Positions 43,366-60,400 of a DNA stretch of 64,000 bases are shown piece by piece. The stretch is from Vulcanimicrobiota bacterium (GTDB taxonomy: Bacteria > Vulcanimicrobiota > Vulcanimicrobiia > Vulcanimicrobiales > Vulcanimicrobiaceae): contig CAVRQT010000002.1 in the NCBI GenBank assembly GCA_963723515.1, forward strand, positions 256,001-320,000, given 5' to 3'. Positions within the stretch are counted from its first letter, which is position 1. Each line of letters begins with the position of its first letter. The position numbers were made by a program, and so were the translations under genes. Below the pieces are notes generated by a model. That model was given only the letters and a program-made list of their open reading frames with translations, was not told the origin of the DNA and did no database searches.

Positions 43366-44134
43366 GCATCAGCCGCGGTTTTGTTAGCTCGAGCACGATG
43401 ATCCACGCATACTTGCGCAGCCCAGGAAAAAACCTGAATAAGCGAGCGTCCACATCGTTCAGACGCTCGACAAGTTTACCCGAGAACGACTTACCAAGCA
43501 GCGGCAGTGCGAGCAGGGCAGTTAAGTAATAATACGTGATATCGATGCTTGCGAACGCGTCTTGTGCGTACGTCAAATCTTTCTCGAGCAGCGGATGCTC
43601 ATCCGGCGTTCGTTCCGCGGGAGTAATCCGCCGGTAGAGATTGATAAACGGATTGTATCCGAGCGGTTCCAAGAACAGCGCGCGGCCGTCAGGCGCCAGA
43701 ACACGCGCAATCTCTTTGAATGCACGAGTCGTATCCAAGTGGTGCAGGATTGCTCCGCCACAAACGATTTCAAACGAACCATCCGGGAATTCCAGCGTTT
43801 CGGCGTCCATCTGATAGAAACGCGCGTTGTCGATTCCCAGTCGTCGAGCATTAGCTTTCGCTTTCTCGACAGCGACGTCAGATAGGTCGATCCCGGTGAT
43901 GATCGCGCCGTGCTTCGCAAGCTCAAGGACGTTTGCACCGCTGCCGCAACCAATCTCGAGAACCCGTTTGCCGCGACATTCTGCCAAGAGCCGCGAGCGA
44001 TGATACCGGTGTGAACGCCGCGTGATTCCGTAAAAGCGATCGACCCGGCCCCGCGCGGAGTTGTCCGAGGCAAAGCGCTCGTTTTGCAGCTGCCGTTCGC
44101 GGATTTTTCTTTCTTCCATAACTGCTTTCGTCAT
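43352..44134 (-). CDS. Class I SAM-dependent methyltransferase
   Basis: VLEIGCGSG, GIDLS, MDAETLEF, ILHHL, RTPDEHP. Confidence 0.92.
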   Translation of the reverse strand: MTKAVMEERKIRERQLQNERFASDNSARGRVDRFYGITRRSHRYHRSRLLAECRGKRVLEIGCGSGANVLELAKHGAIITGIDLSDVAVEKAKANARRLGIDNARFYQMDAETLEFPDGSFEIVCGGAILHHLDTTRAFKEIARVLAPDGRALFLEPLGYNPFINLYRRITPAERTPDEHPLLEKDLTYAQDAFASIDITYYYLTALLALPLLGKSFSGKLVERLNDVDARLFRFFPGLRKYAWIIVLELTKPRLMHAIP

Positions 44135-45747
44135 CGGACCGCCTCCCGATCGCGTTTCAACAACCGGCGCGGGCGCGATGCTAATCGCGCTGCCGCCTTC
44201 TCACGTTCACGACGCAACACGTACGGCAGACGCCGCAACGTTAGATACTGTCGCTTTCCATCGATCACGCAGACATCTCGGTCCCATGACAATGTATGCG
44301 TTCCAGCCGTATAGGGGCGCAAATTATGCGGCAGCAACGTCGCAACGATCTCTTCCGCGAAATCGTCAGGCGTCAGTTGCAGGATTCGATTAATGCGCAG
44401 CGCGCCACCGTAAGTAGTCGCGCAGTCCTGAGATGGTCGATACAGCTGCCCTTGATGAAAGAAAGGCTTGCCGGCCGGACGCGCTGATGTGATGTCGCTC
44501 TTGATCGGATTGCGCCCATGGGGTTGCCATACTCCGGTTAGCCTATCTGCATAGAACGCAAAGAGATGCAGATTGGAGTTACTGCTGCTCGAAGTGCAAA
44601 ATAGCCACCATCGACCGTCGTGTCTAAACAGCGTGCTGTCGCAAGCATCAAACCCTTCGATCAGCGTGCACACGCGCGCCCATTCATATGGAAATGACGT
44701 CGCCCGATAAAGCTCAACGCAATTCTTTTCGGCGCTCTCCGGCACGCAATAATAAACATCCGAGTGCTTGAGCAGAAACGGGTACGAGAGGTGGGAGGGC
44801 TCTTGCATAACCGGTCTTTGGTCGCGTGCAACGCCTCCGGAGATCTCAAAGGCGTCAATGTGGCCGCGATTGGCGCGCCGGTCAAGCGATTCGCAAAGGA
44901 CGAACGTCTTGCCGTCGCTTGAGCCGACCATCGGGTCGGCATAAAACGGATGCCGCTCATTCCAATGCAACCAGCGAACCGAGGGCCGGTAGCCGGAAGT
45001 CAGAAAGTCCTCAGGTGTTGCATTCGCGATGATGCCGATGTTCCAATCGACCTCCGCGAACAAATGGCGCACGGCTCGGCGCCAGAGTCGTTGAGTCAGA
45101 CGCGCCGGCGCACTCAACATCGCTCTTAAGGGAAGCGCACGGCGCGCCTCCCACGGAATCGCCGTATCGAACGATTTGCCGGCCCACTCTTGTGCGCTCC
45201 ATGCGGCCCATTGCGCGCAGGCCTGAAGAATCGGATCTAAATCGCGCAGCCGCAGCGGCAGATTGAATCGAGCGGAGCGCAGGACGCGCGCGCTTCCGTT
45301 AGCGAGGCCAACGACAAGCGCGATATCGAGCGTTCGTGCACCGGCCGCAAATTCGCGCCAGGTGATAGAGCGATCGATCGTCTTGGATCCACGTGTTTGA
45401 AACGACCAAATACCTAAAGGGAAACGCTGACCGTCGCCATCGCTCGGACCACCGCTAAAGTCGAGCAGGAAATCGAATTCACCGGCGCCGAGCTCAGTCA
45501 CGGCGGAAAGCTCTTTGACGCCCTCGATTTCAACGAAGCTTAGCGCACCGCTTTTCGGAGCGGCATGCCATGGGACTCTCGCAGCTCGGTCGTGCTTCTT
45601 GCAAAAGAGGGCGACGTTCATTCCCGGCGTCTCAAGCAAGGCGTTGATGCACCGTTCTTGCCAGACGGCTATTTGCGGTCTCTCAACGAGCACGGCGCAA
45701 CGCAATGCGGTCGGCGCGTTCGCTTTAGGCCGCGGATATATCGGCAA
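44131..45747 (-). CDS. Glucosamine-inositolphosphorylceramide-transferase-like five-bladed beta-propeller protein
   Basis: YADPM, HLSYPF, VPES, DSTL, NPI, ARPAG, RPSQDC, YG, HTLS, IDG. Confidence 0.8.
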   Translation of the reverse strand: MPIYPRPKANAPTALRCAVLVERPQIAVWQERCINALLETPGMNVALFCKKHDRAARVPWHAAPKSGALSFVEIEGVKELSAVTELGAGEFDFLLDFSGGPSDGDGQRFPLGIWSFQTRGSKTIDRSITWREFAAGARTLDIALVVGLANGSARVLRSARFNLPLRLRDLDPILQACAQWAAWSAQEWAGKSFDTAIPWEARRALPLRAMLSAPARLTQRLWRRAVRHLFAEVDWNIGIIANATPEDFLTSGYRPSVRWLHWNERHPFYADPMVGSSDGKTFVLCESLDRRANRGHIDAFEISGGVARDQRPVMQEPSHLSYPFLLKHSDVYYCVPESAEKNCVELYRATSFPYEWARVCTLIEGFDACDSTLFRHDGRWWLFCTSSSSNSNLHLFAFYADRLTGVWQPHGRNPIKSDITSARPAGKPFFHQGQLYRPSQDCATTYGGALRINRILQLTPDDFAEEIVATLLPHNLRPYTAGTHTLSWDRDVCVIDGKRQYLTLRRLPYVLRREREKAAARLASRPRRLLKRDREAVR

Positions 45748-46996
45748 TTTCTTTTCCGTATCCGCGACCGAGGGTATAGCACTCGAAGCCGGCCGCCTGC
45801 CAGAGACGAGCCGAGAAAAAGTTGCGAGTGTCGATCAGGACTCGTGCGCGCATCCGTTTGCCGACATCCAAAGGTGAGAGCGCGCGAAATTCTTCATGAT
45901 CGGTCAGCAAGACGATCGCCGAGGCGTCTTGAACAGCGGCTTGCAACGTCTGAAGCGGCGAAGAGAATCGCGTTGCGATCGGATCGCAAATGGCAACAGA
46001 GTACCCTCGCTCTTGGAGAAGCGAGCAGATTGCGCGCGTCGGCGTTTCACGGGTGTCGTCAACGTTGGCTTTATAGGAAGCCCCAAGTAATGCTATCTTC
46101 GTCCGCGGCGGAGTGAATCGCTCGATCCGCCGCACGACGATGTGCGGCATGCGCTCGTTGATGCGCCGTGCCGTCTGAATGAGTTCCGTTACAAACGGGT
46201 TCGCGTTGGATAGGAAATGCGGGTCGACGGGTATGCAATGGCCGCCGACACCGGGACCAGGGGAAAGGATGTTTACGCGCGGATGTGCATTAGCCAAGCG
46301 GATCGCTTCCCACACGTCAACATCGAGCTCTTCCCCGAGCAATGCAAGTTCGTTCGCGTATGCGATGTTGATATCGCGATAGGTGTTTTCGACGACCTTG
46401 ACGAGCTCCGCAGTCAGACAATCGGTCAGCTCGACATTGCCCCGTACAAACGTCGCATATAGGCGCGCGGCGGCAGCCGCATCGCTTGGTTTACGTCCGC
46501 CGATGACGCGCGGATTCGAACGTAGCTCGTTGATGATATCCCCAGGTATGACACGCTCTGGAGCATGCACGATGCTGACAGTGTCGGGATCTCGTCCCGC
46601 CCGCTGCACCGCGCCGGCAAGAATTCGTTCGGTCGTACCGGGCGGCACCGTCGACTCTAAGACAACGAGATCATCGTCCTTGAGCAGCGATGCAATCGCT
46701 TCGGCTGTTTCTTCAACGTGGCGAAGGTCCGGCTTGCGCTCCCGCGTCGGCGTCGGAACGCAAATGACATAAGCATCCGCGGATTGCAGCATATCAACGA
46801 CTCGCAGCCGGCCGCTCTGCAAGCCTTCTAACGCAATGGCACGCACATCGGGATCCGCCGTGGTGGCGCAATTTTGGCGCAGCGCGCGGCGAACTTCGGG
46901 ATCGGCGTCGTAACCGCTAACTTCAAAACCGGCGCCGGCGAACATGGCCGCCGTTGGTAACCCGATGTAGCCGAGGCCTACGATCGAAATTTTCAC
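45725..46996 (-). CDS. wecC: Nucleotide-sugar (UDP-ManNAc/GlcNAc) dehydrogenase
   Basis: GLGYIGLPTA, ICVPTP, ESTVPPGTT, PERV, KVVENTYRDINIA, GVGGHCIPVDP, YKANVDD. Confidence 0.9.
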   Translation of the reverse strand: MKISIVGLGYIGLPTAAMFAGAGFEVSGYDADPEVRRALRQNCATTADPDVRAIALEGLQSGRLRVVDMLQSADAYVICVPTPTRERKPDLRHVEETAEAIASLLKDDDLVVLESTVPPGTTERILAGAVQRAGRDPDTVSIVHAPERVIPGDIINELRSNPRVIGGRKPSDAAAAARLYATFVRGNVELTDCLTAELVKVVENTYRDINIAYANELALLGEELDVDVWEAIRLANAHPRVNILSPGPGVGGHCIPVDPHFLSNANPFVTELIQTARRINERMPHIVVRRIERFTPPRTKIALLGASYKANVDDTRETPTRAICSLLQERGYSVAICDPIATRFSSPLQTLQAAVQDASAIVLLTDHEEFRALSPLDVGKRMRARVLIDTRNFFSARLWQAAGFECYTLGRGYGKEIADISAA

Positions 46997-46998
46997 GG

Positions 46999-48243
46999 TT
47001 ACGCTTTCATCTCGGCCAGCACGCCGGAACGCTCCTCAAGCATCGCCGGTCGCCGGAGCAGCGCAGAGAGAACCGCCGCCGTTTGACGAGCGTCGTATTG
47101 CTCTGCGACGCGTTGTCGCGCCTGGAGACCCAGCGAAGAGCCGCGATTTGCATCGCGAGCTAACGTAATGATCGCATCCGCAAGTGCGCCGCCGTTACCT
47201 TGCGGAACGACGATGCCACATGATCCGTCGAGCAACTCTGTTACGCTGCCCGAGTTCGTTGCAATACACGGGAGCCCGACGGCCATCGCCTCCATCAGCG
47301 CGACCGGGATGCCTTCCATCTGATCTTCACGCTCGATGCTCGGCAAGACGGCGGCGTCGAACATGCCCGCCTGAAGTTGACGAAGCAGCTCGCGATGCGG
47401 CACCTCCGAGAGGATCGTCACGACCGATGAAAGCCGATGCTTTCGAATCAGCGCTGCGATCGCTGACTTTAACGGCCCGTCACCCGCAAGAAAGCAGCGC
47501 ACCGAATAGCCGGCGTCCCGAACCTGCGCAAGCGCTTCAATTAGAATCTTGTGCCCCTTGATCGGCACGAACGCCGCGGCACACAGCAGCGTAAGCGGCC
47601 GATGGCGCGCTGCCAGCGGATACGCCGCTCGTTCAGGCGGTACGCGAACACCCAGATGTAAAGCGACTGAACGCTCCCAATGGACGACCCCGATCCGCTT
47701 GCGATAGTCGGAAAGTCCACGGCGGGAGATCACGCGGGTGAAGGAAGCAGATTTCGCTTTTGCGTGTGCTAGGTTGTCCTCGTAGATGTCCCAGCGGTGC
47801 GCGGTTGAACTCCACGGCTTACCGGCGAGTTGTGCAGCGATGTATGCGACCGTGGACGGCGTCGAGAGCCAATACGAGTGAATGTGATCGATGTTCTCGC
47901 GACGGACGATGTCAGCCACGGCAAGCGCCTTCGGAAAGATGGCGAGGTTTTTCAGGCGCACAGTGAAGCGCGCTTTGGGCGCGATGATAGAGCGCAGTGC
48001 GCGCAGGACCGCGCGGGGCCGCGAACAGCACATTTGGATCGTGCGGCCGTACGTGCGCAGTGAGATCAGCGGCAAGCGGAAAACTTTCGCCGGCAAATCG
48101 GGATAGCGCGATTGCCGGCGCGGCGGCGACGTTGGAATAATTGTGAGCTCTTCTATGTACTCCGAGAGCGCACGGATTTCGGCTTCCAGATACGGCTCTT
48201 TCGGTCCGAATGGAAACTTTGCGGAGATAATTGCGATCTTCAC
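46999..48243 (-). CDS. GT4 glycosyltransferase (WcaL-like)
   Basis: HIHSYW, STAHRWDI, KGH, EGIPVALMEAMA. Confidence 0.9.
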   Translation of the reverse strand: MKIAIISAKFPFGPKEPYLEAEIRALSEYIEELTIIPTSPPRRQSRYPDLPAKVFRLPLISLRTYGRTIQMCCSRPRAVLRALRSIIAPKARFTVRLKNLAIFPKALAVADIVRRENIDHIHSYWLSTPSTVAYIAAQLAGKPWSSTAHRWDIYEDNLAHAKAKSASFTRVISRRGLSDYRKRIGVVHWERSVALHLGVRVPPERAAYPLAARHRPLTLLCAAAFVPIKGHKILIEALAQVRDAGYSVRCFLAGDGPLKSAIAALIRKHRLSSVVTILSEVPHRELLRQLQAGMFDAAVLPSIEREDQMEGIPVALMEAMAVGLPCIATNSGSVTELLDGSCGIVVPQGNGGALADAIITLARDANRGSSLGLQARQRVAEQYDARQTAAVLSALLRRPAMLEERSGVLAEMKA

Positions 48244-48274
48244 CTGAGGCGGTCACGAACATCAGCGAAATTCA

Positions 48275-49690
48275 CTATACGGCCCGGTGAAAGAGAAATT
48301 CGGCAGCGGTCTTGCAGATCACCGAGATGTCCATGAAGACCGACCAGTGTTCAACGTAGAACAGATCGAACGCAAGTTTCTCGCCTGCTGCGGATGGCTC
48401 CAGGACCCGTTTCATATGCACCTGAGACCATCCGGTGATGCCGGGCTTGACGACGTGGCGTTCATCGTAGTGCGTCAGCGTCAAGCGAAACATCTCAACG
48501 AAAAACGGTCGCTCGGGTCGTGGACCGACGATCGACATTTCGCCGCGAAGTACGTTGAAGAGTTGAGGCAGCTCGTCCAAACTTGTCCGGCGTAACAGCG
48601 CACCAACGCGCGTGACGCGACCGTCACCGGCCTTTGCCCACGTCGGGCCGCTCGCTTCTTCCGCTTCGCGTCTCATCGAACGAAACTTGAGCATCACAAA
48701 GGAGCGGCCGTTTTGACCGATCCGCTCCTGACGAAACAAGATAGGGCCGCGGTCTTCCAACCATATCGCGGCTGCAATGCAGCCCATGAGCGGCAAAGCA
48801 ATCGCGGTAGTGATTGCAGAAAAACCAAGATCGATCGTCCGCTTGAGGACCCGCGCATGCAACGTGCACGCTCGCTTCGGGCGCGGTACGACAAGCGGCT
48901 GATCACCGATCTGCTCAAGATAGAGCGCGAAACCGTTCGCCGAAACGCGCGGGGCCGCAAAGGCGACGGCAATCTTTGCCCGTCTTGCGAGATCTAAGAT
49001 TGCCGCGATCGAATCTTTTTCGGGAACACCCGCAAAGACGATACGGTCGGCGCCCCAGCGGCGCGCCTCTGCGATCGCAAGCGCCGGCGACGCCTGGTCT
49101 TGGACGCGCAGCGTTTCAACGCGCTCGACGGATCGCAGCGATGCATCAAGAGCGTACGCGTCATCACTCTGTCCTACGACGGCGACACGATGCGGTCGTC
49201 GCAGATGCGGCGCGTCAACCAGCGCGTGCGATATCGCTCGGAATGCACCTACGAGTGGTACCGCAAGAAACAGCGTGATGAGAAGAACGGCGCGCGACGT
49301 CGAGATTGCGGGAAATAACGAGAAAACGGCAACTTGCGGAACGATCGTCAAACAAAGAGCGGTGACGACATAGTAAAACTCGTCCCGCGAGTGCTGAGCA
49401 AAGCTAACGTGGTACAGCCCTAGGCGCGCGAAAATCAGAATACAGACGAAGGCTCCGACGAGAGCAGAGACGAGCACGCGGCCGTAGTTGAGATCTGCAC
49501 TCCAACCGTGGACGACGATGACGCTGGCAAGAAACGTAGCGAAGAGAAACGCCGAAGCGTCGCCAAAGAGCAGCGTCAGGGTCCGTTCAGAGCTGTACAG
49601 AAGCGGCGGCCCTTTGGAACGCATCGTTTGGGGCGCAGCATTGCCAGCCACCGACGATACAGCAGAATCGCCGGGGCGTGAAACATCCAT
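48275..49690 (-). CDS. Priming polyprenyl glycosylphosphotransferase (WcaJ-like)
   Basis: KRTIDL, FRQERIG, KFRSM, LRRTSLDELPQLFNVLRGEMSIVGPRPE, KPGITGWSQV. Confidence 0.95.
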   Translation of the reverse strand: MDVSRPGDSAVSSVAGNAAPQTMRSKGPPLLYSSERTLTLLFGDASAFLFATFLASVIVVHGWSADLNYGRVLVSALVGAFVCILIFARLGLYHVSFAQHSRDEFYYVVTALCLTIVPQVAVFSLFPAISTSRAVLLITLFLAVPLVGAFRAISHALVDAPHLRRPHRVAVVGQSDDAYALDASLRSVERVETLRVQDQASPALAIAEARRWGADRIVFAGVPEKDSIAAILDLARRAKIAVAFAAPRVSANGFALYLEQIGDQPLVVPRPKRACTLHARVLKRTIDLGFSAITTAIALPLMGCIAAAIWLEDRGPILFRQERIGQNGRSFVMLKFRSMRREAEEASGPTWAKAGDGRVTRVGALLRRTSLDELPQLFNVLRGEMSIVGPRPERPFFVEMFRLTLTHYDERHVVKPGITGWSQVHMKRVLEPSAAGEKLAFDLFYVEHWSVFMDISVICKTAAEFLFHRAV

Positions 49691-49747: not shown

Positions 49748-49808
49748 CGGCCCTAGAGTCTCAAGAAGTGCCCGAAAGTCCTAAGCATCAGGGTAGTTAC
49801 TGACCCTG
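49748..49808. promoter_or_regulatory. Tandem DosR/NarL-like boxes upstream of the priming transferase operon
   Basis: CGGCCCTAGAGTCTCA (49748-49763) and GTGCCCGAAAGTCCTA (49768-49783), 20 bp apart, then inverted repeat TCAGGGT...ACCCTGA. Confidence 0.55.
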
Positions 49809-49818
49809 AGGTGCTCGA

Positions 49819-50622
49819 TTAAGGATACGCGATGAGTTCTTGATCGTAGTAGTCGGCGGTCGCCCCATTCACAATTGCCAGGCCGGCCCACTTGACCTTC
49901 GGATTCAGCAGATTGGTAGAGTGCGTTGCGAGCCCATCGCGCGCCGCCGGTCCTTCCGCGAGAAACGCGGACTCGATGTCGGACCAATTCGCGCCGTTGG
50001 CGACGGCGATATTCTCATAATCTTGACCGATACCAAAGAAACCGAAATAGCGTTCCCACGGCTCCTTGCCGCGCCGGTCAACGTGTCTAAGATAGCCGTA
50101 TCGCTCCATTTCGGCGGCGTGGTCGCGCGCGGCAAGCAACGCCGCCTCATCCATCGCTACGGGAGCAACATGGTGCGCCTCGCGATCCCGATTGACGCGC
50201 GCAAGCCACTTGTGTTCATCAGCACTCAATTTGCTGAGGGCAATAACGCGTCCGATGTTCCCGAGCGATGTGTCAACGATTCCGTGGAATGCGGCGTAGA
50301 TCGCGTGCGGGCAGTTCACGACCAGCAACACTTGTGCGCGGCCACTTAGAGCGGCGGAATAGGCGCCATCGCGCCGGGTTCGCATTCTTGCAAACGCTGG
50401 CGCGCCATTTTCAGGAAGAGCTTCAACGCTCGCGCCCGCGATTGGGCGTCCGGAATCACGATCCACGATCTTCCCGATAACGGGCACATCAGCCGCGTTC
50501 GCGCATCGCGCGCCGCCGAGGACTGCTGCAGTTAGCACAGTCGCGCAGGCCAGCGCCCGCAACGACGTCAGCCTCCGGGGCCGCCGTGGACGCTCTGCGG
50601 AGCCTTCAGTGCGTACACGCAT
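49819..50622 (-). CDS. Secreted protein with carboxypeptidase-regulatory-like domain + CAP (SCP) domain; start uncertain
   Basis: GKIVDRDSGRPIAGASV; VNRDR, AARDHAAEM, ENIA, HSTNLLNP. Confidence 0.8.
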   Translation of the reverse strand: MRVRTEGSAERPRRPRRLTSLRALACATVLTAAVLGGARCANAADVPVIGKIVDRDSGRPIAGASVEALPENGAPAFARMRTRRDGAYSAALSGRAQVLLVVNCPHAIYAAFHGIVDTSLGNIGRVIALSKLSADEHKWLARVNRDREAHHVAPVAMDEAALLAARDHAAEMERYGYLRHVDRRGKEPWERYFGFFGIGQDYENIAVANGANWSDIESAFLAEGPAARDGLATHSTNLLNPKVKWAGLAIVNGATADYYDQELIAYP

Positions 50623-50788
50623 GGGGACTTTTGGCCTAAACCCGTAGGGCATACACAGGGAAGGTTGGGACCTTTGGGCTAAATGCCCTCGCAGATCACC
50701 TTTTCGTTCGTTTCCAATTTTAAGGAAGACGGCAGGAGAACGCCCGCACCGGCGGGCACAGTCGTGGGGTAAAGGGACTAAAGACCTA
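50623..50788. promoter_or_regulatory. Three DosR/NarL-like boxes in the CAP/peptide divergent region
   Basis: GGGGACTTTTGGCCTA (50623-50638), TGGGACCTTTGGGCTA (50666-50681), AGGGACTAAAGACCTA (50773-50788). Confidence 0.65.
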
Positions 50789-50841
50789 GTATTTTAGTAC
50801 TTACCTCGGAGAGTCTAAACCTCGGCAGAAAGGCATTTTTG

Positions 50842-50997
50842 ATGAAGAAGACGCTGGCGCTCGCTACCCTTGCACTCTTGGCTTCAGTCTTCGCAGGCTG
50901 TTCAGGCGGCACAGGGACGTCCATGATTCCGACTGCGCCGCAGCAGGCGCAGGCGCACCAAGGCGATGCGCTGGGGGGACAGCCGGCTCACAGATAG
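50842..50997 (+). CDS. 51-aa lipoprotein-type peptide (candidate signalling-peptide precursor)
   Basis: Below the ORF-track cutoff. SD AGAAAGG; MKKTLALATLALLASVFAG-CSGGTGTSMIPTAPQQAQAHQGDALGGQPAHR with lipobox FAGC. Confidence 0.8.
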   Translation: MKKTLALATLALLASVFAGCSGGTGTSMIPTAPQQAQAHQGDALGGQPAHR

Positions 50998-51050
50998 CGC
51001 TGGCGCGCACAGCGCGACCCGGAATTGAACCCGTCGCAAGTCTTTTGCCC

Positions 51051-51091
51051 GAGGCGCCTAGTACGATCGTACCAAGGCGCTTCTTGTATTT
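51051..51091 (+). terminator. Hairpin/terminator-like element between the peptide gene and the regulator
   Basis: GAGGCGCCT-A-GTACG-AT-CGTAC-CA-AGGCGCTTC followed by TTGTATTT. Confidence 0.55.
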
Positions 51092-51113
51092 GCTGCTAGA
51101 CTAACCGCAGCAT

Positions 51114-52667
51114 ATGCTGCCTCTAACCTTGCTGCCCGAATCGCCCTCGGAAGTCCTTACAGAGGTCCGCAAATCGATGCGTGCCGGAGACTTCTCGTGC
51201 TGTCACGAGATGCTGGACACACTCCCGAATGATCCGTGCACGACACTCCTACGTAGTAGGGTCTTGATTCGCGAAGCGAAACATGCGGCAGCAATCCAAC
51301 ATCTTCTCGAAGTCGAAAGCCAAGTTCAAGATGGCGACCGCGCTCTATGGTGTACTCTGCTCGGAGCAGCGCATGCTTATAGCGGACAGTTTGCTGACGC
51401 TCAAGCCCATTTTGAACGAGCCGCTGCATTGCCGTCAGATGATGACGTCCACCTGGACTTAGTGTACTATCGCGGCACATTAGCCCGATTGCTGCGCGAT
51501 TACGATGCGGCTCTTTCTGCCGCCGCCGTCCTGGAAGCATCAGACGAACACACGTATCGCGGACTCGGCTTCACGCTTCACTCCTGGGTTGAAGTGAATC
51601 GCGGAAACGCCCAAGGCCAGTCGAAGCTACTTGTCCGTGCGCTCGACGCCTTCGAAAAATCGCGCGAACGCGACGAGTACCTGGTGGGCCGCACGTTAAT
51701 GACGCTTGGGGCTCTCTGTCGCGACACCTTTTTGGCCAGCGCCACAAAACGCCTAAAGTCCTCGGCGGAACGAGTTCGGTGGGGGTCGAGCCTGGCGCTG
51801 GACCACTTCCAGGTGACGCGATTTCTCGCTTCGATCGAAGCGCTCGCAGGTAACGAACTTGCGGCTTTTCGTCTGCTCAAGCTCTCCGCCTCGCTAGCAC
51901 CATCGAACGTTTGGAAAGTTCTGCCGTTGCTTGATCGCGCAAAGTTAGCGCGTAGCAATGGCGAAGAAAGTTTCGCCCTTGACCAGCTGTACGAAGCACA
52001 TGCGTTAGCCTCTGAGGTGAACTGGGTTGAAACGCATAACGAAGAGCGCTGTGCGCTTCTCATCCTCGGCGAACTTTTCGCGTCGACTGACCCGCGAATC
52101 GCAACGCAGTATCTTGAAAAGTTTCACGCGCTGCCACCTGTCGATGCGAATCTCGCTTATGCCTCGGATCGGCGCGTCAGCGCCTTCGCCGCGTACTCCG
52201 CCGGCATGGCGCATAAGCAGCTCGGCAATGGCTCCGTCGCGCTGGCCGCGCTTACAGACGCCTGGGATACCTTTGAGGAGTTCGCATATGGCTGGCGGTC
52301 GGCACTCGCCGCTGCAGCGATTTACGAGCTGACCGGTGCCCGCACATGGCTCACCCGCGCACAGCACGCGATTGCGCCGTGGCCGAACAGTTGGATCGCG
52401 CGAAAAGTCGTGCGGCTGGACGCTGAAAAGCCTCCGACTGCTAAACTGACGTCAATGCAGCACCGAATCTACGATTCGCTTCTTGCCGGTCACTCGACGA
52501 AAGAGATTGCTGAAAAGTTGGGACGCAGCCCCAACACGATACGCAATCATATCGCGTCCGTCTTCTTGGCGTTTCGCGTCAAGTCGCGCGCGCAGTTGCT
52601 CTCCACGAGCTTTGCACTTTCCAACGTGAGGTCCGCCGAACAAGCCTACACTCAAGCATCCGCCTAA
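51114..52667 (+). CDS. TPR-like helical sensor + C-terminal LuxR HTH transcriptional regulator
   Basis: Ala/Leu-rich TPR-like repeats (LLGAAHAYSGQFADAQAHFERA); LTSMQHRIYDSLLAGHSTKEIAEKLGRSPNTIRNHIASVF; no receiver or Walker motif seen. Confidence 0.88.
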   Translation: MLPLTLLPESPSEVLTEVRKSMRAGDFSCCHEMLDTLPNDPCTTLLRSRVLIREAKHAAAIQHLLEVESQVQDGDRALWCTLLGAAHAYSGQFADAQAHFERAAALPSDDDVHLDLVYYRGTLARLLRDYDAALSAAAVLEASDEHTYRGLGFTLHSWVEVNRGNAQGQSKLLVRALDAFEKSRERDEYLVGRTLMTLGALCRDTFLASATKRLKSSAERVRWGSSLALDHFQVTRFLASIEALAGNELAAFRLLKLSASLAPSNVWKVLPLLDRAKLARSNGEESFALDQLYEAHALASEVNWVETHNEERCALLILGELFASTDPRIATQYLEKFHALPPVDANLAYASDRRVSAFAAYSAGMAHKQLGNGSVALAALTDAWDTFEEFAYGWRSALAAAAIYELTGARTWLTRAQHAIAPWPNSWIARKVVRLDAEKPPTAKLTSMQHRIYDSLLAGHSTKEIAEKLGRSPNTIRNHIASVFLAFRVKSRAQLLSTSFALSNVRSAEQAYTQASA

Positions 52668-52676: not shown

Positions 52677-53366
52677 TTGAAAATGCTTCCACGTGAGCGC
52701 CTCATCGACACGGGGCAGCTCGATCGTTCGCTCCTGTGCTATCGTCCCGTTGTCGGTTTCTTGCCGCGCGGGCGCTATGAACTTGCGCGTGCGCTGCTGC
52801 CGGCCGAACGCGCTGAACGCGCTCTCGAAATCGGGTACGGCAGCGGCATCTTTATGTCCGAATTGGCTCAACATGCGCGTCAGATCTTCGGCATTGACAT
52901 GCACTCTGAACAGCCCGCGGTTAGGGACGCGCTTGCGCAGGAGCGAATCACCGCGCATCTGGAGTCCGGCAACGGTGCCCACTTGCCGTTCCCGGATAGC
53001 TACTTCGATGTCGCTGTCTCGACGAATGGGTTGGCGTCGGTCTCCGACGTCGGCGCAAGCTGTTTTGAAATCGACCGCGTCCTAAAAGAGGACGGCCGCG
53101 TTATCGTTGTAATTCCGGCGTTCGCGTGGTTCGCTGAAGCGGCATCGCAAGGGGTGTTTGGAAAGAACGTAAGACAACATTCACCCAATAGCCGACAATT
53201 ATTGATGCCGATGCTTCGGCGCCACTTTGAGGTAGAAACCTCGCTGAGTTTTCCCAAATGGCTTTCGAACGCATTGCCGCTCTACCGCGCTCTTCGGCTG
53301 CGAAAACTCGGGTCAAGCACCGCGCCGGACCTGTGGCATGAAGACCCCTTAAGAACGTCCGCTTAG
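52677..53366 (+). CDS. Class I SAM-dependent methyltransferase
   Basis: LEIGYGSG, GIDM, LPFPDSYFD, RVLKEDG. Confidence 0.88.
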   Translation: MKMLPRERLIDTGQLDRSLLCYRPVVGFLPRGRYELARALLPAERAERALEIGYGSGIFMSELAQHARQIFGIDMHSEQPAVRDALAQERITAHLESGNGAHLPFPDSYFDVAVSTNGLASVSDVGASCFEIDRVLKEDGRVIVVIPAFAWFAEAASQGVFGKNVRQHSPNSRQLLMPMLRRHFEVETSLSFPKWLSNALPLYRALRLRKLGSSTAPDLWHEDPLRTSA

Positions 53367-53379: not shown

Positions 53380-54117
53380 TTATGCGGTCAAAGAGGCCCG
53401 GATCCAATAGATCGAGACCGGTGCGCAGGAGTCCCGGCGAAGAACGGCCGCTGCGGCGACATGGCACGCACTGGGACGCGAGATGAAGAATTGCCAGTTC
53501 CCAATGCCGACGGGCCGACCGTTTTCGCGCTGTCCGACCATCAATCGTTCGGGCACGTTCCCCAATCCGTCTCCAAGCGCCTTAACGAACGCCTCCTTCA
53601 AAACCCACTGTTCGAAAAATCGCGCAGCGCGCTGAGGCCGTCCCAAACTTTCAATAAACGCCGCCTCAGGAGCTGTGAGGAAATGTCGTGCGAGCAGCGC
53701 GGTATCAATCGGCCGAGACGTATCTTCGGCATCCACGCCCACTTCGCCGGCTCGACTGACGGCGCAAACGACCAAATTGTCAGTGTGCGTCAGGTTGAAG
53801 CGCAGGGACGCGAAACGCTCCGGCGCGGCGACTGCCGGCTTGCCTTGCGCACCGATCCTAAAACGCCATTCGGAGGGGTTGACGCCTGTGTACCTCGAGA
53901 GCATTGCACGGCATAACGCATGTCCAGCGAGATACTGTTCGCGCATTTCGTCCGTCTCAAACCGCTCGTATTGCGAACGCTCGTCATCTGAAAGCCGAGA
54001 CAACCACGTATTACGCGACGCGCGCGAACGCACTTCGCTTGGCTGCAACTGCCACGCATGCACGGCGCCGAGAAGCGCATCCCACGCACTCGATCTATTC
54101 GAAACTGGCGTCGCCAT
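53380..54117 (-). CDS. Sfp-type 4'-phosphopantetheinyl transferase
   Basis: LSDDE, GKP, FNLTHT, VGVDAE, WVLKEAFVKA. Confidence 0.93.
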   Translation of the reverse strand: MATPVSNRSSAWDALLGAVHAWQLQPSEVRSRASRNTWLSRLSDDERSQYERFETDEMREQYLAGHALCRAMLSRYTGVNPSEWRFRIGAQGKPAVAAPERFASLRFNLTHTDNLVVCAVSRAGEVGVDAEDTSRPIDTALLARHFLTAPEAAFIESLGRPQRAARFFEQWVLKEAFVKALGDGLGNVPERLMVGQRENGRPVGIGNWQFFISRPSACHVAAAAVLRRDSCAPVSIYWIRASLTA

Positions 54118-55196
54118 CGTACGCTGAAGGATCCCAAAATCGCGATTCGCTTAGCTCAGCCTCGAGCGCCTGATCGCCGGCTCTGTAAAAAAACTTCCAG
54201 TTCTCAAGCTTCTTACGATAGGGCGCGCACGCATCAAGCGCTCGCATCTTGGGGATCCCACGCCCTAGATGTTCGAGAATATACAAATTCTCAGCGGCGC
54301 ATCGCTGTAGCACAGCCCGAAGAAACACTGGCAAGAAATCACCTGCGACGTCGAGGCTTTGGTAGTCGACAAGCCTCATTCCCCGAAGTTCGCGTGTCGC
54401 CATGCGGCAGAGCCGGCAGCCGAAAGGCATGATCTTGGTACGTCAGGGTGCAGTAGGCGCGCAGCTTACCGTTTCGGGAAGCGGTAAACGCCCACAACCT
54501 GCCCTTACGTAACGGTGCGGCAAAATGCCAGGAAAGAGCTTGCGAAGTGCGCTCGGCTAACAACTTCTCAGGTTGCTCGCGCACGAGCTCTTCCCAGAAT
54601 ACATCAAACCGCGAGTCGAAGCGATCTATGCTTTCGATCGTAAAAGGCCCTCGCATCTTTGGAAGCCGTTTGTGGGGAACAGCATCCTTCCAGCACAGCA
54701 TTGCATCCGGATGGAAGCCGGTCACCCAATATGAAATGGTGTCCCATTCCCCTAGCGGGATGCGTTTACAGAATTGGCTGAACGATTCAAGTGCCGGGAC
54801 GCTGACGGCATTGTTGATGAAGAGATCGACGCCTGACTGATTGAGATATTCGTCCATGAGCTGAAGAGCGAATCCCCGATACGCCGCAGTAACGAACCAG
54901 GCACGCGAAACAGCTGAGATCAGATCTTCTCCTCGGAACTTGTACCGTGAGCGAACGGTGCCCATGGTGCCGACAATCTCGCCGTCCGGGAGCTCAAGCA
55001 CCCACCCGATCGGAAAATCGTTGCCCGACTTCGATCGAAGCGGATTGTCGATCCATAGAGTGCTCCAATCCTCGTACTGCGGAACATCCAGCGAATGCGC
55101 TAATCCGAGGCGCCGAATTTCTGAGTAATCCTCAAGGCGCGCGGAACGAAGTGTCGGAGCGGGGCGCGCCGCAACAAGCGGAAGCGACGCATTCAT
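54095..55196 (-). CDS. GNAT-like acyltransferase paralog 2, frameshift near 54385
   Basis: Collinear with the neighbour: W-DNP, IGWVLE, AWFV...YRGFAL, FDSRFDVFWEEL, ERTS..L.WHF; the next frame gives VDYQSL...FWDPSAYDGD. Confidence 0.75.
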
Positions 55197-56326
55197 AGCG
55201 TGGCGTCACCATCGAAAAGTGAAGGGTCCCAAAACTGCGGCTGTCGCAGCTCCGCGTCGAGTTTCGCATTCGCTGCACGATAAAAAAATATCGAGTTCGG
55301 GAGCTTTTGGCGATACGGAGCACACTGGTCAAAAGCCCGCATCTTCGGCACACCGACGCCGACGTTTTGCAGTACATAACACCCTTCTGCGGCGCAGCAT
55401 CGAAGTGCCGCGCGAAGAAAAGACGGCAATAGGTCGGCCCCCAGCTCAAGGCTCTGGTAATCCACAACAGACATGCGACAGCCGCCCGCGGTTGGTTGCC
55501 GCCGCAGAACGCAATAGCCGCGTAGCCGTCCGCTGTTCGATGCGGTGAAGATCAACAATCGGTTCCTGCGAATAGCGCCCTCAAAATGCCACATGAGGGC
55601 GCGGCTGCTACGCTCGGCCAACAATTTATCGTAATTTTCGCGCACGAGTTCTTCCCAAAATGTGTCGAACCGGGCGTCGAACGTGTCCGTACGTTCAACG
55701 ACGAGAGAACGCTCGGATTTCGGGAGCGTTTTGCTGGAGAGCGCGTGCTTTAGCCGTAGCGAACCAGCGGCGGGATATGCGAGCAACGGCGCCAGCGGCA
55801 CACGATATTTTTTAAGCGCTCGCTCGGCAAATGAAAGATACCCTGTTATAAAGTACGACATCATGTCCCATCGGCCGAGCGGAATGGGTCCGTACAACTG
55901 GCTGAGCGTCGGGAACGCGGCGCGGCCGACCGTAGTACTGATTAACAGATCGACGGGTTGCTCAAAATACTCCTCGATCAGTTGCAGGGCATATCCCCGA
56001 TACGGAGCTTTGACGCACCACGCAGCGCTGGCACCCGCAACCAGATCGCTTCCCCGCCATTTGTAGCGTATCGGAATCGTCTCCATCGAGCCGACGATCT
56101 CGTGTTTGGCCGTTTCTAATACCCAGCCGATTGGCGAGTCTTTGCCTAACTGCCACCAGATCGGGTTGTCAACCCAACGATGACGCCAGTCCTCGAACGA
56201 TGGAGGTTCGAGCGCATATTCTTGGAGCAGCGTGCGAATGTCTTCGTAATCATCAAAGCGCATCGGACGCAGGTCCGGCGCATGAAGCAACGCATCAATA
56301 TGTCCGCTTACTGCGGGCGAACTCAT
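55193..56326 (-). CDS. GNAT-like acyltransferase paralog 1
   Basis: LRPMRFDDY, W-DNP, IGWVLE, AWCVKAPYRG (GNAT motif-A-like), FDARFDTFW, FWDPSLFDGD; fold assignment is inference. Confidence 0.75.
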   Translation of the reverse strand: MSSPAVSGHIDALLHAPDLRPMRFDDYEDIRTLLQEYALEPPSFEDWRHRWVDNPIWWQLGKDSPIGWVLETAKHEIVGSMETIPIRYKWRGSDLVAGASAAWCVKAPYRGYALQLIEEYFEQPVDLLISTTVGRAAFPTLSQLYGPIPLGRWDMMSYFITGYLSFAERALKKYRVPLAPLLAYPAAGSLRLKHALSSKTLPKSERSLVVERTDTFDARFDTFWEELVRENYDKLLAERSSRALMWHFEGAIRRNRLLIFTASNSGRLRGYCVLRRQPTAGGCRMSVVDYQSLELGADLLPSFLRAALRCCAAEGCYVLQNVGVGVPKMRAFDQCAPYRQKLPNSIFFYRAANAKLDAELRQPQFWDPSLFDGDATL

Positions 56327-57562
56327 GCGTTCGCTTCGTATAATAGGCGTAGCGACTTTAAGCCGCGCAAGCCCAGGTTCTCACGCCAGTCCAGTTTTTG
56401 ATTCGTGAGCTCAAGCCGCGGGAATCGCGCCAAAAGCGTTTCAAAGGCAATCTGCCCTTCCAAACGCGCCAGCGGCGCTCCGAAACAGAAGTGAGCAGCC
56501 CACCCGAATGCCAAATGTCGATTGTCTGCTCGCTCGAAATCGAGCTCGTCTGGGTCAGAGAATCGCTCGGGGTCGCGATTGCCGGCGGCCATAACCGCAA
56601 TCACCGCGTCGCGCTTACGGATCTGCTTTCCGCCGAGCATGACATCGTTGGGCGCAAGGCGCGCGGTGTGCTGGCTCGGGCTTTCGTAACGCAGTAGCTC
56701 CTCAACGGCCGCCGGTACAAGTGCCAGGCTCTGCGCGCAGTTTTGCAAGATGATCGGGGTTTCGCAACAGCGTGAGAATGCCGTTGCCGATGAGATTTGT
56801 CGTTGTTTCTTGGCCGCCGACCATGGTAACGATGCAATTCGCGATGATCTCTTCATCAGTTAAGCGATCACCGTCGACTTCGCTCGACATCAACGCTTGA
56901 ATTAAGCCGTCGCGAGGAAATTCGCGTTGCTCGCGAATTGCGTTTTCGAAATATGACGTGAGGCGCTCCACCGCGCTCAATACGCCTTCGAGCTGATCCG
57001 GATTGTGCTGAAAATTTCCCAGCATACCGGCAAACGTGGCGGACCAATCCTTGAGTTTGCGATGGTCCTGAACCGGAACGCCGAGCATCTCTGCCGTCAC
57101 GATCGCGGGCAGCGCTTCCGCGAAGTCGCCGAGCAACTCCATTTCGCCCGTTCCACGCAGCACGATGCAATCGAGCAACTGTGTCGCTATTCTTTCGATG
57201 TGGCGCCGCAACTCACGCACACGGGCCGGCATGAACGCCGGAGCGGCAAGCTTGCGTAAGCGAGCGTGCGCCGGTGGGTCCAGAAAGAGCATTTGCTTGA
57301 CCATCACCTTCGCGATCGGGCCGACATGTGGGGCACCCAAGGCCTCAAAAAATTCGGGCGAGGGCGTGCGGTCGGCGGAAAAGCGCGTCAGTACGGTGAT
57401 GACGTCGTCATACCGTGTGACGACCCAGCTATGCAGGTAAGGATCCCAATGCACGGGATCTTCCGTCCGCAATCGACGATAGAGCGGGTAGGGGTCTGCA
57501 AGAACGGCGGGATCGAGCAGATGGTACAGACTCAGCGGAGCTGCCGCCTCGATTGCAGCCAT
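56323..57562 (-). CDS. Cytochrome P450, frameshift near 56715
   Basis: DPYP, LDPPAHARLR, GGQETT, EELLRYESP, NRDP, heme motif FGWAAHFCFG. Confidence 0.93.
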
Positions 57563-57575
57563 TGATGCGTTCCGG

Positions 57576-59402
57576 TTACCGGGCGCTGATCAGGCCCGCA
57601 ACTTCATTCGCAAGCTCGCGCACGGTTGGCGCGATGAAGATCCGCCGAAGAGGCAATTGCACGCCAAACACTTCGCGAATGCGCGCGACAAGCTGGGCGC
57701 CGAACATCGAATGGCCTCCGATCATAAAGAAGTTTTCATTTGCGCCGATCGACGGGCGACTCATCAGAGAGGCGACCAACTGGCCAATCTCATGCTCAAG
57801 GCCGCTTAACCCACCATTCGTGGCAGAGGCGTCGAGCAACAGGTTCTCAGCGCAAGGAGCGGGCAGCGCCGTCTTGTCCACCTTTCCGTTCCGCATCAAC
57901 GGCAATGCCGCAAGCGAAACAAAAAACGCTGGAATCATGTAGTCCGGCAATTGATCTGCGAGATCTTCGCGCAATTGCTTCTCCGTTAACCGCGCGCCCG
58001 GCGCGGCGACGACATACGCGACCAGCGCGCGTCCCCCCGGAGCGACATCTTTGATTGCAACCGCCGCGGCCAAAACGTTGGAGGATCGGTTCAGGCACGC
58101 CTCGATCTCGCCGAGCTCAATACGGTGTCCGCGGAGTTTCACTTGATCGTCGAAGCGACCCAGAAATTCGATCTCACCGTTATCGAGCAACCGTACGCGA
58201 TCGCCGGTTCGATACAAACGGACCGACTCTCCCGAAGCAGCGATGTAGGTGATAAACTGCTTTGCGGTCAGCTCCGGCATGTTGCAATAGCCACGTCCAA
58301 CCACCGCACCGCCGATGCACAACTCGCCGGGATCGCCTTTTGCTACCGGGCGCAAGGAAGCGTCGAGAATGAAGGCCGTCGCGTTCGTGATGGGAAGGCC
58401 AACGGAGGGCCGCCTTACTTCATTGCCTTCAGGTGCAACGATTCCAGAGGTTGATACGACCGTGCATTCCGACGGACCGTAGTTATTCACGACAGTGAAA
58501 GGCAGTCCGGGGGGCGGGCGCCGTTGGAGCGTATCACCGCCTGTCAACAGCAACCGAAGCGCAGTTTCACGGGGCCAATTGGCGGAAAAGAGTTGCTCGG
58601 CCAGTGCGGTCGCGACAAAAGCAATCGTGATCTGCTCGTCGATGAGCCACGCCTGAAGCGATTCCGAGGAGCGTCGGGTCGATTCATCTGCGATGTGCAG
58701 CGTTGCGCCGGCAGCAAGGTTCGGCCAGATCTCCCAGACGGCCGCGTCGAACCCGAGGCTTGCGAGTTGGCTTGCACGGTCTGCCGGCGTCACGGAAAAC
58801 GCAGACTCATGCCACGTAAGAAGATTGCAGAGGTTTGCATGGGTTATCTTGACGCCTTTGGGCTGGCCCGTCGAACCGGACGTGTAGATAATGTACGCGA
58901 GCGAGTCGTAATCGATCGGAGACTGCACGAACGGCTTCTCAGCGATGCCGTGAACTTGCTCGATTGCGATCAGCGGGCACGGTGCGCCAGCTAGCTCTTC
59001 AGCGAGCGGCGAAGCCGTTATTACGGCCACAGCACCCGCGTCCGTGAAGATCGACAATGCGCGCTTCAGCGGCGTTGAAGGGTCCAACGGCAAGTAAGCC
59101 GCGCCGCTCTTCAGTATCGCCAGCGCGGCAACGACAAACTCAGTGGACCGTTCGAGAAAGATTCCGACGCACCGTTCCGGTTTCGCGCCCGCCTTCTGCA
59201 GCAAAGCAGCAAGGCGGTTCGAGTCGTGTTCGAGATCGCGTCGGGTCAGTCGGCGGTTGACGTCGGCAACCGCGATACGATAAGGATCGGCCGCGGCATG
59301 TGAAGCGATCCGCTCTGGTATCGAATACCGCTTTGCCGTATCAGCGGCCGAGAGCACGCCGATCTCTTTCATACCCGCTCGGTCGCAAACAAATGGACGC
59401 AC
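57576..59402 (-). CDS. Stand-alone NRPS adenylation-thiolation didomain, predicted Leu-specific (start may be ATG 59372)
   Basis: LKSGAAYLPLD, YTSGSTGQPKG, FDAAVWE, NYGPSE, GELCIGG, YRTGD, QVKLRGHRIELGEIE, NGKVD; PCP FFMIGGHS. Confidence 0.95.
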   Translation of the reverse strand: MRPFVCDRAGMKEIGVLSAADTAKRYSIPERIASHAAADPYRIAVADVNRRLTRRDLEHDSNRLAALLQKAGAKPERCVGIFLERSTEFVVAALAILKSGAAYLPLDPSTPLKRALSIFTDAGAVAVITASPLAEELAGAPCPLIAIEQVHGIAEKPFVQSPIDYDSLAYIIYTSGSTGQPKGVKITHANLCNLLTWHESAFSVTPADRASQLASLGFDAAVWEIWPNLAAGATLHIADESTRRSSESLQAWLIDEQITIAFVATALAEQLFSANWPRETALRLLLTGGDTLQRRPPPGLPFTVVNNYGPSECTVVSTSGIVAPEGNEVRRPSVGLPITNATAFILDASLRPVAKGDPGELCIGGAVVGRGYCNMPELTAKQFITYIAASGESVRLYRTGDRVRLLDNGEIEFLGRFDDQVKLRGHRIELGEIEACLNRSSNVLAAAVAIKDVAPGGRALVAYVVAAPGARLTEKQLREDLADQLPDYMIPAFFVSLAALPLMRNGKVDKTALPAPCAENLLLDASATNGGLSGLEHEIGQLVASLMSRPSIGANENFFMIGGHSMFGAQLVARIREVFGVQLPLRRIFIAPTVRELANEVAGLISAR

Positions 59403-59561: not shown

Positions 59562-60276
59562 CTATGCGAAGCCGCTCCTTATGGCGTGGACCGCGGCTTG
59601 CGAACGAGCGGAGATGTTCAGCTTTGAGAAAATGCGGCTCACGTGATTCTTAACCGTCTTCTCCGAGAGGGACAATCGAGCGCCGATCTCTTTGTTGGAG
59701 AGTCCCTTCGCGATCAGCGTAACGATCTCGATCTCACGTCTTGAGAGCTCGCACGCGTCGTTGCCGTCGTGCATCGTACGTCTGCGCAGAATACCGCCCG
59801 CAAGACGTGCATCTACGTAGGGATCGCCCTTTGCGACGACCTTAATCGCCTGGCGGAACTCCTGCGGAATGATGTCCTTCATGATATAGCCGCTCGCGCC
59901 GGCGTTGAGACAACGCTGCATCAGTTCGGGCTCGCTGCGGCCCGAAAGAATGCAGACCGCGACGGTCGGCAGCTCCTTGCGGCATTGTGAAACGAGCTCC
60001 GCGACATCCATCAGCGAATATCGGTCCGGCCCGGTGTGCTCGATATCGAGAATGATAACGTCCGGTCGCCGCGCTGCTAAGGCAGCGGAAGCGACAGAAG
60101 GCGCATCGCAGACCACCTGCAAGATCTGGGTCCGCGGCAAGCATCATGCTCAGCGCCTTTGAAAAAAGGCGCTGCGTTTCGATAATCGCCACTTTTACGG
60201 GACGCGCATGCTGGGTGTCCGCGTCGTGTACAAACGACGGAGCGTCGCGGCGCTGGTCAATGAGCGCGGTCGTCAA
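59562..60276 (-). CDS. NarL/FixJ-family response regulator (REC + LuxR HTH), frameshift near 60122
   Basis: VKVAIIETQ, PDVIILD, ILSG, GASGYIMKD, LSRREIEI...GLSNKEIGARLSLSEKTVKNHVSRIFSKL; SD GGAGA before TTG 60276. Confidence 0.88.
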
Positions 60277-60400
60277 GAAATATCTCCATTCACAAGCTCG
60301 CACCACGCGCGGCGCGGCCGGTTGGCGGTCACCCTTGGCCCACTGTAAAGGGCGCGACGAAGAACGACCATACCAAGAATTGGGTATTGAGCGTCAGATT

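Follow-up and report, generated by a model that had tools for sequence, protein, structure and literature searches.

Enterococcal sex pheromones such as cCF10 and cAD1, which are sensed by PrgX and TraA, are released from the signal peptides of large lipoproteins whose genes lie elsewhere. In RRNPP(A) systems (Rap-Phr, NprR-NprX, PlcR-PapR, Rgg-SHP, ComR, PrgX, AimR-AimP, and AloR-AloP), a cytoplasmic TPR-like receptor sits beside a small exported propeptide. RRNPP receptors have a helix-turn-helix (HTH) at the N terminus and a C-terminal TPR region (PMC9765709, 10.1101/767517), some propeptides are tandem multi-copy (PMC11343458), and 211 of 2,734 are of the signal peptidase II (SPII) type (PMC9765709). 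The RRNPP_detector survey presents peptide quorum sensing in the cytoplasm as a trait of Bacillota, and it threw out clusters with an N-terminal TPR (PMC10075063). The MalT/LAL-type STAND regulators combine an NTPase, a SUPR/TPR sensor, and a LuxR HTH; the SUPR sensor of MalT is described as binding maltotriose (PMC4381067). Here we describe a gene pair from a 64,000-nucleotide stretch of Vulcanimicrobiota DNA (the window): a 51-aa putative lipopeptide precursor followed by a 517-aa regulator with a TPR-like solenoid and a C-terminal LuxR-type HTH. We found no description of this regulator-precursor family in the literature covered, which lay outside subscription papers, supplements, and the supplementary lists of the RRNPP surveys.

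The window corresponds to positions 256001-320000 of contig C2 of the source genome, G000 (2.11 Mb, 88% complete). Coordinates follow window numbering unless labelled otherwise. L numbers denote relatives' loci, G numbers denote genomes, and f and g numbers are family and genus labels.

The precursor gene and its regulator

50842..50997, plus strand: precursor gene, 51 aa with an ATG start; leader (residues 1-19), lipobox Cys20, linker, and one core
50829..50833, plus strand: Shine-Dalgarno (SD)-like sequence AAAGG, 8 nt before the ATG
50965..50994, plus strand: core D42-A-L-G-G-Q-P-A-H-R51 (family consensus D-[ST]-[VL]-G-G-G-P)
50998..51020, plus strand: GC hairpin after the precursor stop, folding no better than shuffles
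51114..52667, plus strand: regulator, 517 aa, cytoplasmic; TPR-like solenoid at about residues 9-438, LuxR/GerE HTH at 445-496
50787..50802, no strand assigned: operator candidate 1, TAGTA-N6-TACTT, 15.1 bits, the second-best site in the 2.11-Mb genome, 55 nt before the precursor start
51059..51074, no strand assigned: operator candidate 2, TAGTA-N6-TACCA, 21.1 bits, ranking first in the genome, 55 nt ahead of the regulator start

A preliminary description of this locus had proposed a small open reading frame (ORF) with an SD sequence, a lipobox, a low-complexity linker, and a compact tail, and all of these are present. The leader is basic-hydrophobic and ends in F-A-G-C20, in which F at -3 is non-canonical for a lipobox. 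The linker is made up of G, T, S, P, Q, and A, and the tail reads GDALGGQPAHR. GAAAGG or GGAGG is also found before homologous precursors. The gene had been called unannotated, which fits at most its function, since the small protein is an already called gene in the protein collection (source NCBI). It had no Pfam matches and only sub-threshold lipoprotein-leader matches in NCBIfam, and no NCBIfam family scored above its cut-off for 50 precursors. G000 has a single full-length copy of the regulator, no full-length paralog of the pair, and no other small exported ORF with a strict core.

The two closest orthologs settle the nature of the tail, because they repeat the single core four times. In L071 (regulator 62% identical), a near-identical leader is followed by four tandem DTLGGGPI cores, and L072 (regulator 56% identical) has four related cores. 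Aligned with residues 1-49 of the L071 precursor, the one studied here shows 61% identity; the two differ by 18 synonymous and 16 non-synonymous codons. The small ORF is not a truncated piece of a longer lipoprotein, an outcome that had been named in advance as refuting.

Pairing of regulators with small exported ORFs

Searches with the regulator returned 521 representative homologs at E <=1e-10. When genome contigs were searched, a single-protein query gave no matches and an alignment query recovered homologs. We extracted 169 distinct regulators from loci L001-L230, and 145 had enough flanking sequence to evaluate. A locus counted as paired if a small ORF with a hydrophobic leader, an SD sequence, and a loose core was located <=800 nt upstream or <=450 nt downstream of the regulator. 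By this definition, 102 of 145 loci had a small exported ORF next to the regulator, its core resembling D-[ST]-x-GG-x-P, compared with 16 of 300 random G000 windows. Nearly all of these ORFs (96 of 102) were upstream of the regulator on the same strand. With the criteria unchanged, 28 of 63 new, held-out loci passed, and about 11 more had an obvious precursor by eye. A motif-free version of the test gave 106 of 208 loci vs. 3 of 300 real gene starts, one of the three being the 51-aa ORF studied here.

The pairing predicted from one locus, with D-x-x-G-G-x-P-tailed ORFs in the flanks of homologs, recurs in both sets of loci, and the refuting outcome named beforehand, a family without small exported ORFs next to its members, did not occur. 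The gene pairing is beyond chance because orthologous precursors adjoin homologous regulators. It also extends to family members that have no HTH: a precursor adjoins 6 of 15 of these by script, and L059, L063, and L066 by eye. Since precursors are kept beside HTH-less members, a simple link between a regulator and its target gene is no explanation for the pairing.

Several loci depart from the usual arrangement. The regulators of L002, L006, L098, L229, and L230 are kept beside an HU-like gene without a precursor. Four of the five have an operator located 32 nt upstream, and all are candidates for solo or eavesdropping receptors. In G125, a precursor with its own operator (L291:3279-3410) sits about 9 kb from the nearest family regulator, and for this reason some orphan regulators may have displaced precursors. 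At L159 (698-1699) and many g47-like loci, the gene that diverges from the precursor often encodes an unnamed lipoprotein, about 335 aa long and internally repetitive. It had no Pfam match, and its look-alikes are unnamed or DUF3466.

Repeated cores under purifying selection

Across the family the core follows the consensus D-[ST]-[VL]-G-G-G-P, in agreement with the tail pattern D-x-x-G-G-x-P predicted from this locus. Precursors have 1 to 18 copies, with at least 2 in 73 of 86 precursors and one in the other 13. The core is kept across receptors that are only 25-30% identical, and same-genome paralogs bear different cores (G146, G108). When adjacent repeat copies were compared in 72 precursors, the ratio of synonymous to non-synonymous differences was 659:93 in the cores vs. 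240:688 in the flanks, as expected of repeat cores that are under purifying selection at the codon level. Position +7, which is outside the regular expression used to define the core, still gave 91:33. Conservation spans positions 0 to +7 and falls off beyond them, as would fit a mature peptide some 8 residues long; the predicted signal in G000 is D42-A49.

A lipobox was present in 95 of 114 first-set precursors. Among 64 diverse pairs scored by eye, only about 15 had one and most had a plain short hydrophobic leader, so the lipobox is optional family-wide. The Cys position is retained in homologs that were selected for having a lipobox.

The hairpin noted previously after the small ORF is at the position described, but it has no significance as a structure. 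Its folding is at chance level (z 0.13 and -1.24 vs. shuffles) and no U-tract follows it, and we rejected a terminator or structured RNA on these grounds. The same stretch (50998..51020) is possibly a decayed second core copy. Its similarity to the core DNA was matched by 44 of 2000 shuffles in a post hoc test.

Domain structure, distribution, and origin of the regulator

The domain scan placed a GerE/LuxR HTH at residues 445-496 (E 1.9e-8), gave weak TPR matches, and found no receiver, AAA, or NB-ARC family. The N terminus is soluble. AlphaFold2 predicted an all-helical solenoid plus HTH with no beta strand (pLDDT 94.5). The scan and the model thus bear out the architecture first proposed, a 517-aa TPR-like protein with a C-terminal LuxR HTH and neither receiver nor ATPase. 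The order of the parts, with the HTH after the solenoid, is indeed inverted relative to RRNPP receptors.

Homolog source names were Eremiobacteraeota or Candidatus Cybelea. The named homolog genome records were Vulcanimicrobiota/Eremiobacterota in 77 of 80 cases, the others being two Acidobacteria-named bins and one uncultured. Profile matches at E <=1e-25 occurred in 38 of 44 family f1 genomes and in none of 76 other genomes of the phylum, with up to 12 regulator matches per genome (no more than 12 candidates were scored for each). Full-length members also occur in three f2 genomes and one f3 genome. The regulator family is almost confined to one Vulcanimicrobiota (Eremiobacterota) family. 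GerE was found in 67 of 80 family members, and no RRNPP-specific family was among the 25 of 42 Pfam families listed for these 80 members or among 3 NCBIfam families. Clusters of look-alikes by language-model features occur in Actinomycetota and Acidobacteriota. A scan of viral contigs gave five HTH-only matches and no full-length regulator.

A TPR-only profile compared with the PDB gave generic TPR matches. One of these, 5dbk, is a 372-aa 'Transcriptional regulator/TPR domain protein' that scored no better (E 0.0015) than eukaryotic TPRs. Foldseek with the whole model returned only generic eukaryotic TPR proteins. In a wide structural search, MalT domain III (Z 21.6, root-mean-square deviation 6.3 over 347 residues) and RapI (Z 20.7) were tied at the top. 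The next matches were Rap phi105 (Z 18.9), OGT (18.6), AimR (17.8), and NprR (17.0), amid generic TPR proteins, so that MalT domain III, Rap, AimR, and NprR were all within the top 10. A shared fold by itself demonstrates no function.

An AAA_16-GerE protein of 934 aa, encoded in the same class, aligned through its C-terminal half with the family profile (98% with the HTH, 86% with the solenoid alone). In a second STAND protein of the lineage, the TPR-region match was only 0.2%. By these profile comparisons, the regulator is likely to have derived from a MalT/LAL-type protein that kept its sensor and HTH but not its ATPase. Given its reversed architecture, it does not belong to RRNPP.

Within the family, an HTH-less clade of 430-480 aa (L019-L023, L049, L055, L059, L063, L066, L068) includes some tandem arrays. 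Its precursors are either of a very long repeat type or short, leaderless-looking hydrophobic peptides, which parallels Rap and SHP. P0040 (837 aa) and P0188 (954 aa) have a duplicated or extended solenoid ahead of one HTH, and L249 (G157) is a five-gene tandem array without called precursors.

A candidate palindromic operator upstream of both genes

A palindrome with 5-bp arms and a 6-nt spacer was found in 66 of 106 upstream regions, compared with 3.4 in shuffles, and 61 upstream regions have an exact match to TAGTA-N6-TACTA. We scored sites with a matrix trained on 43 sites, leaving this locus out; the two best sites of the whole genome are the two operator candidates listed above. In L071 and L072, too, a counterpart of operator 2 precedes the regulator gene. 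Of 38 regulators for which no precursor was called, and which were outside the training data, 12 also have the site, which ties the palindrome to the regulator. In the clade of L012, L016, and L018, which has an altered recognition helix, the palindrome is TGGCA-N6-TGCCA instead; this is a single event.

We rejected a wider G000 regulon, because sites at 11-14 bits were no better than the permuted-matrix null. A secreted prolyl oligopeptidase encoded at 1-1747 is a tempting processing enzyme for Pro-containing cores. The 13.3-bit operator-like site at position 1852, 105 nt before that gene, was rejected as within chance.

Neighboring genes and candidate outputs

52677..53366, plus strand: class I methyltransferase (Methyltransf_11), 9 nt after the regulator stop
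49819..50652, minus strand: divergent CAP-domain gene (Pfam CAP and CarboxypepD_reg), heading a minus-strand run into the exopolysaccharide (EPS) genes
39646..49690, minus strand: EPS genes (sugar transferase, family 4 glycosyltransferases, UDP-sugar dehydrogenase, Wzy-like protein, GNAT), a candidate output
53380..59402, minus strand: adenylation-thiolation nonribosomal peptide synthetase (NRPS), P450, two Pfam-less paralogs, and a phosphopantetheinyl transferase (PPTase), accompanying the EPS cluster

From its position, the methyltransferase is likely a co-transcribed output gene. Among 290 loci, a counterpart in this place was found just once more, in L071 (42% identity). Operator 1 lies in the intergenic region common to the precursor and the divergent CAP/EPS genes, and the CAP gene is a candidate target of this operator. 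No homolog of the CAP gene was found beside any other of the 290 loci. In general, the immediate neighbors of family loci vary and no modifying enzyme recurs.

The EPS/NRPS cluster is common to G000, G117, G125, G144, and G006; outside the window, the NRPS block was seen at L291, L292, L294, L301, and L302. The rare NRPS-module gene of the window has homologs in 4 of 66 genomes, always with the same NRPS, P450, PPTase, and EPS genes. To judge by its content, the block may activate amino acids and transfer them to the polysaccharide as decoration, and it does not resemble an NRPS with a peptide product. G117, G125, and G144 belong to one genus, g47, and have a paralogous regulator about 30% identical to ours in the cluster with its own precursor; in G117 and G125, this regulator directly precedes the NRPS. 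Operator matches inside the cluster make up 3 of 11 in the whole G117 genome, 5 of 13 in G125, and 5 of 16 in G144, where 0.13-0.22 are expected, and nearly all of the matches in the g47 clusters are intergenic. G006 has the cluster without a family regulator, and no operator site was found there. A control palindrome, TGATA-N6-TATCA, showed no clustering in EPS clusters. By the evidence of these sites, the polysaccharide genes are probably an output of the regulator. The g47 clusters also encode, behind an operator, a second LuxR-HTH protein of 360-375 aa, its N-terminal part unassigned (L298:14411-15532, L300:9871-10968, L295:1184-2257), that is possibly the second tier of a cascade.

Three boxes resembling GGGAC-N4-GTCCC, at 50624, 50667, and 50774, are in the divergent intergenic region, with another at 49749. 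They are similar to the DosR consensus TTSGGGACTWWAGTCCCSAA (PMC2275270). Two of the four DosR-like sites in the window (<=2 mismatches) fall in the divergent region, by a motif chosen post hoc. The boxes may be bound by a NarL-type response regulator at 59562-60306, a gene that is apparently split over two frames. An apparent ortholog of it, judged by eye from N-terminal likeness, directly follows the TPR-LuxR gene in L072 (L072:4040-4753), so in the window an insertion of the methyltransferase and the NRPS block may have parted the regulator from the NarL-type gene. The P450 of the NRPS block is also split over two frames in G000. Apparent frameshifts split several G000 genes (window 56323-57562 and 59562-60306; C1:17103-18187; C2:582286-583340; C2:768056-769112), which suggests indel errors in the assembly.

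Proposed mechanism and alternatives

We think it fairly probable that the pair is an RRNPP-like peptide-sensing circuit on a MalT-type scaffold, autoregulated through the palindromes and with polysaccharide as its probable output. The precursor would be exported by Sec and lipidated at Cys20, a step for which the motif is present and Lgt and LspA occur in the lineage. Proteolysis outside the cytoplasm would then free the peptide D-A-L-G-G-Q-P-A, of about 8 residues, with boundaries as suggested by the selection pattern; the precursor has one copy of it here and up to 18 in relatives. Uptake could occur through one of many family-5 peptide-binding ABC systems, the genes for which are present: G000 has 14 matches to SBP_bac_5 (peptide-binding protein). 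It also has Omp85 and TonB receptors. Given the fold and the gene pairing, the peptide would be bound in the solenoid groove of the neighboring regulator. The HTH would act on TAGTA-N6-TACTA palindromes, with feedback on the regulator's own two genes. Activation is somewhat more likely than repression because of the analogy to MalT and LuxR. The output would be the synthesis and decoration of exopolysaccharide, to judge by the sites in three g47 genomes. In the window, the sole routes by which EPS/NRPS could be controlled are the intergenic region with the divergent genes and the methyltransferase that follows the regulator.

We hold a broader version of this proposal more tentatively, as somewhat short of an even chance. 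In this version, the family is a second independent invention of intracellular peptide quorum sensing, in which an ATPase-less MalT-type sensor, with a dozen orthogonal channels per genome and multi-copy lipid-anchored or secreted precursors, works across the outer membrane and turns on exopolysaccharide (biofilm matrix) via a 16-bp operator.

A number of observations weigh against a peptide-sensing circuit that controls polysaccharide genes. The automated pairing test fails at about 30% of first-set and about 55% of held-out loci. Some misses are frameshifted or atypical precursors, while others are true orphan clades (L002/L098/L229/L230 beside the HU-like gene; L154/L160/L187). The first locus set is skewed, with one clade making up 84 of 169 rows, and the core regular expression was derived from the same data and so restricts non-synonymous counts at positions 0-6. 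The proposed check for peptide/receptor co-variation gave a loose co-divergence, in that the more alike two receptors are, the more alike their cores tend to be (Mantel rho 0.22, null maximum 0.16). The signal is weak, with 23 wins and 11 losses vs. same-genome paralogs, and such co-divergence is expected from linked inheritance alone. Permuted matrices outnumber the real operator matrix in genome matches (mean 9.4 at >=15 bits), so the case for the operator rests on rank and position, not on score.

Other such points concern the output and the envelope. The three genomes with operators in the EPS cluster are of one genus, identity between their regulator and the one in the window is only about 30%, and the second LuxR-type gene in the g47 clusters, itself behind an operator, could bind the sites. 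G000 has no homolog of that second gene, yet both operator sites are present. No window site of >=9 bits was found between 19611 and 50787, and none of >=7.5 bits after 51454. The earlier suggestion that the pair controls the flanking EPS and NRPS loci is favored by the paralogs in g47, but there is no operator inside the window's EPS run or before its NRPS operon. The DosR-like boxes suggest that another regulator also acts at the divergent region. The genes lgt and lspA were not found in the 88% complete G000. Of 61 genomes searched, 57 have both genes side by side, among them G001 of the same genus, and we therefore rejected their absence as a lineage trait (the envelope-machinery tallies include the unpublished genomes G020, G022, G029, G030, G048, and G059, none of which carries a claim alone); because the two genes are neighbors, the gap in G000 is likely due to incompleteness. 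Finally, a diffusible signal from a lipid-anchored precursor in a diderm is unexplained.

The alternatives are taken in descending order of plausibility. In the first, which we consider unlikely, the core is a ligand that does not count neighbors but acts cell-autonomously, as a readout of export, of the processing of lipoproteins, or of proteolysis in the periplasm of the same cell, or else is handed on solely through contact or vesicles. The lipid anchor that prevails in this clade (95 of 114 first-set precursors) would suit such a role. So would a diderm envelope, indicated by Omp85 and TonB receptors in G000 and by a cultured relative that is Gram-negative and diderm according to its description (PMC9758169). 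However, most diverse members have no lipobox, and up to 12 paralogs per genome, different cores, and repeat amplification are better suited to channel-specific signalling.

Also unlikely is a regulator that senses a small molecule, for example an EPS-derived oligosaccharide, with the small lipoprotein merely a target gene that has a structural role in the envelope or matrix. The top fold match is to MalT domain III, described as binding maltotriose (PMC4381067), and the operator ahead of the small gene, the EPS context, and the existence of orphan regulators would all fit. However, HTH-less members retain an adjacent precursor, cores vary among paralogs and track receptor clades, and selection acts on about 8 residues while sparing the spacers.

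We give little credence to the idea that the small gene encodes a multi-core precursor of the RiPP type (a peptide made by the ribosome and altered after translation), modified by the methyltransferase, P450, or NRPS, and that the regulator controls that cluster only. Multi-core cassettes are reminiscent of RiPPs, and the methyltransferase comes right after the regulator both here and in L071. However, it is beside only 2 of 290 loci, the NRPS module accompanies EPS genes and not the precursor, and the leader is an export signal. The 55 flanking proteins (phosphoesterases, EamA, PfpI, MIP, patatin, and others, with one radical SAM) include no recurrent modifying enzyme, and this, together with the variable neighbors, argues against a RiPP.

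The last alternative, in which the ORF is a spurious or cut-short remnant of a lipoprotein that adjoins an ordinary LuxR-type regulator only by accident, could draw on the one core here vs. four in the closest orthologs, the possible decayed second copy, and the split genes in the assembly, but it is largely refuted by conservation (short orthologous precursors that share its position and operator, single-core precursors normal at 13 of 86, and the 18 synonymous vs. 16 non-synonymous differences to L071), so that it is highly improbable and at most this one copy could be shortened.

If the peptide-sensing proposal is true, a widespread family in an outer-membrane-bearing soil phylum uses another receptor lineage, and the design arose twice. 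It would also raise the question of how peptides cross a diderm envelope. A receptor, a predicted 8-residue ligand, an operator, and a candidate regulon (the exopolysaccharide genes) are all the parts needed for a direct test in a laboratory host, and the many natural receptor-peptide pairs with different cores could supply genetic switches that are orthogonal to one another. The contributions of this locus are the ranking of the operators in their own genome, the selection on the core, and an EPS/NRPS regulon with a natural negative control in G006.

Comparison with known systems

The lipobox precursor supports part of the analogy drawn previously with enterococcal pheromones, which involve, as is proposed here, a lipoprotein-precursor signal sensed in the cytoplasm. 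The rest of the analogy is inexact: here the core follows lipobox Cys20 and is in a dedicated small gene beside the receptor, and a lipobox is optional (about 15 of 64 diverse pairs).

The likeness to MalT/LAL STAND proteins is in the regulator, which has the same order of sensor and LuxR HTH and finds its best fold match there. In contrast, it has no NTPase (NOD) or arm domain, and it is paired with a peptide gene.

With RRNPP systems, the pair shares a TPR-like receptor of the cytoplasm whose gene adjoins that of a small exported propeptide, the occurrence of variants that, like Rap, have no HTH, a large number of paralogs per genome, and a fold match (Z 17-20.7) to RapI, Rap phi105, AimR, and NprR. 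Tandem multi-copy and some SPII-type propeptides are found in both, according to the RRNPP literature. The differences are that the HTH is C-terminal and of the LuxR/GerE type, whereas the RRNPP receptors in those same sources have an N-terminal HTH or three-helix bundle; that the host is a diderm outside Bacillota; that the core is the Gly/Pro-rich D-x-x-GG-x-P; and that the Pfam families listed for 80 members (25 of 42) include none specific to RRNPP. We regard the system as a probable case of convergence with RRNPP, not as part of that group.

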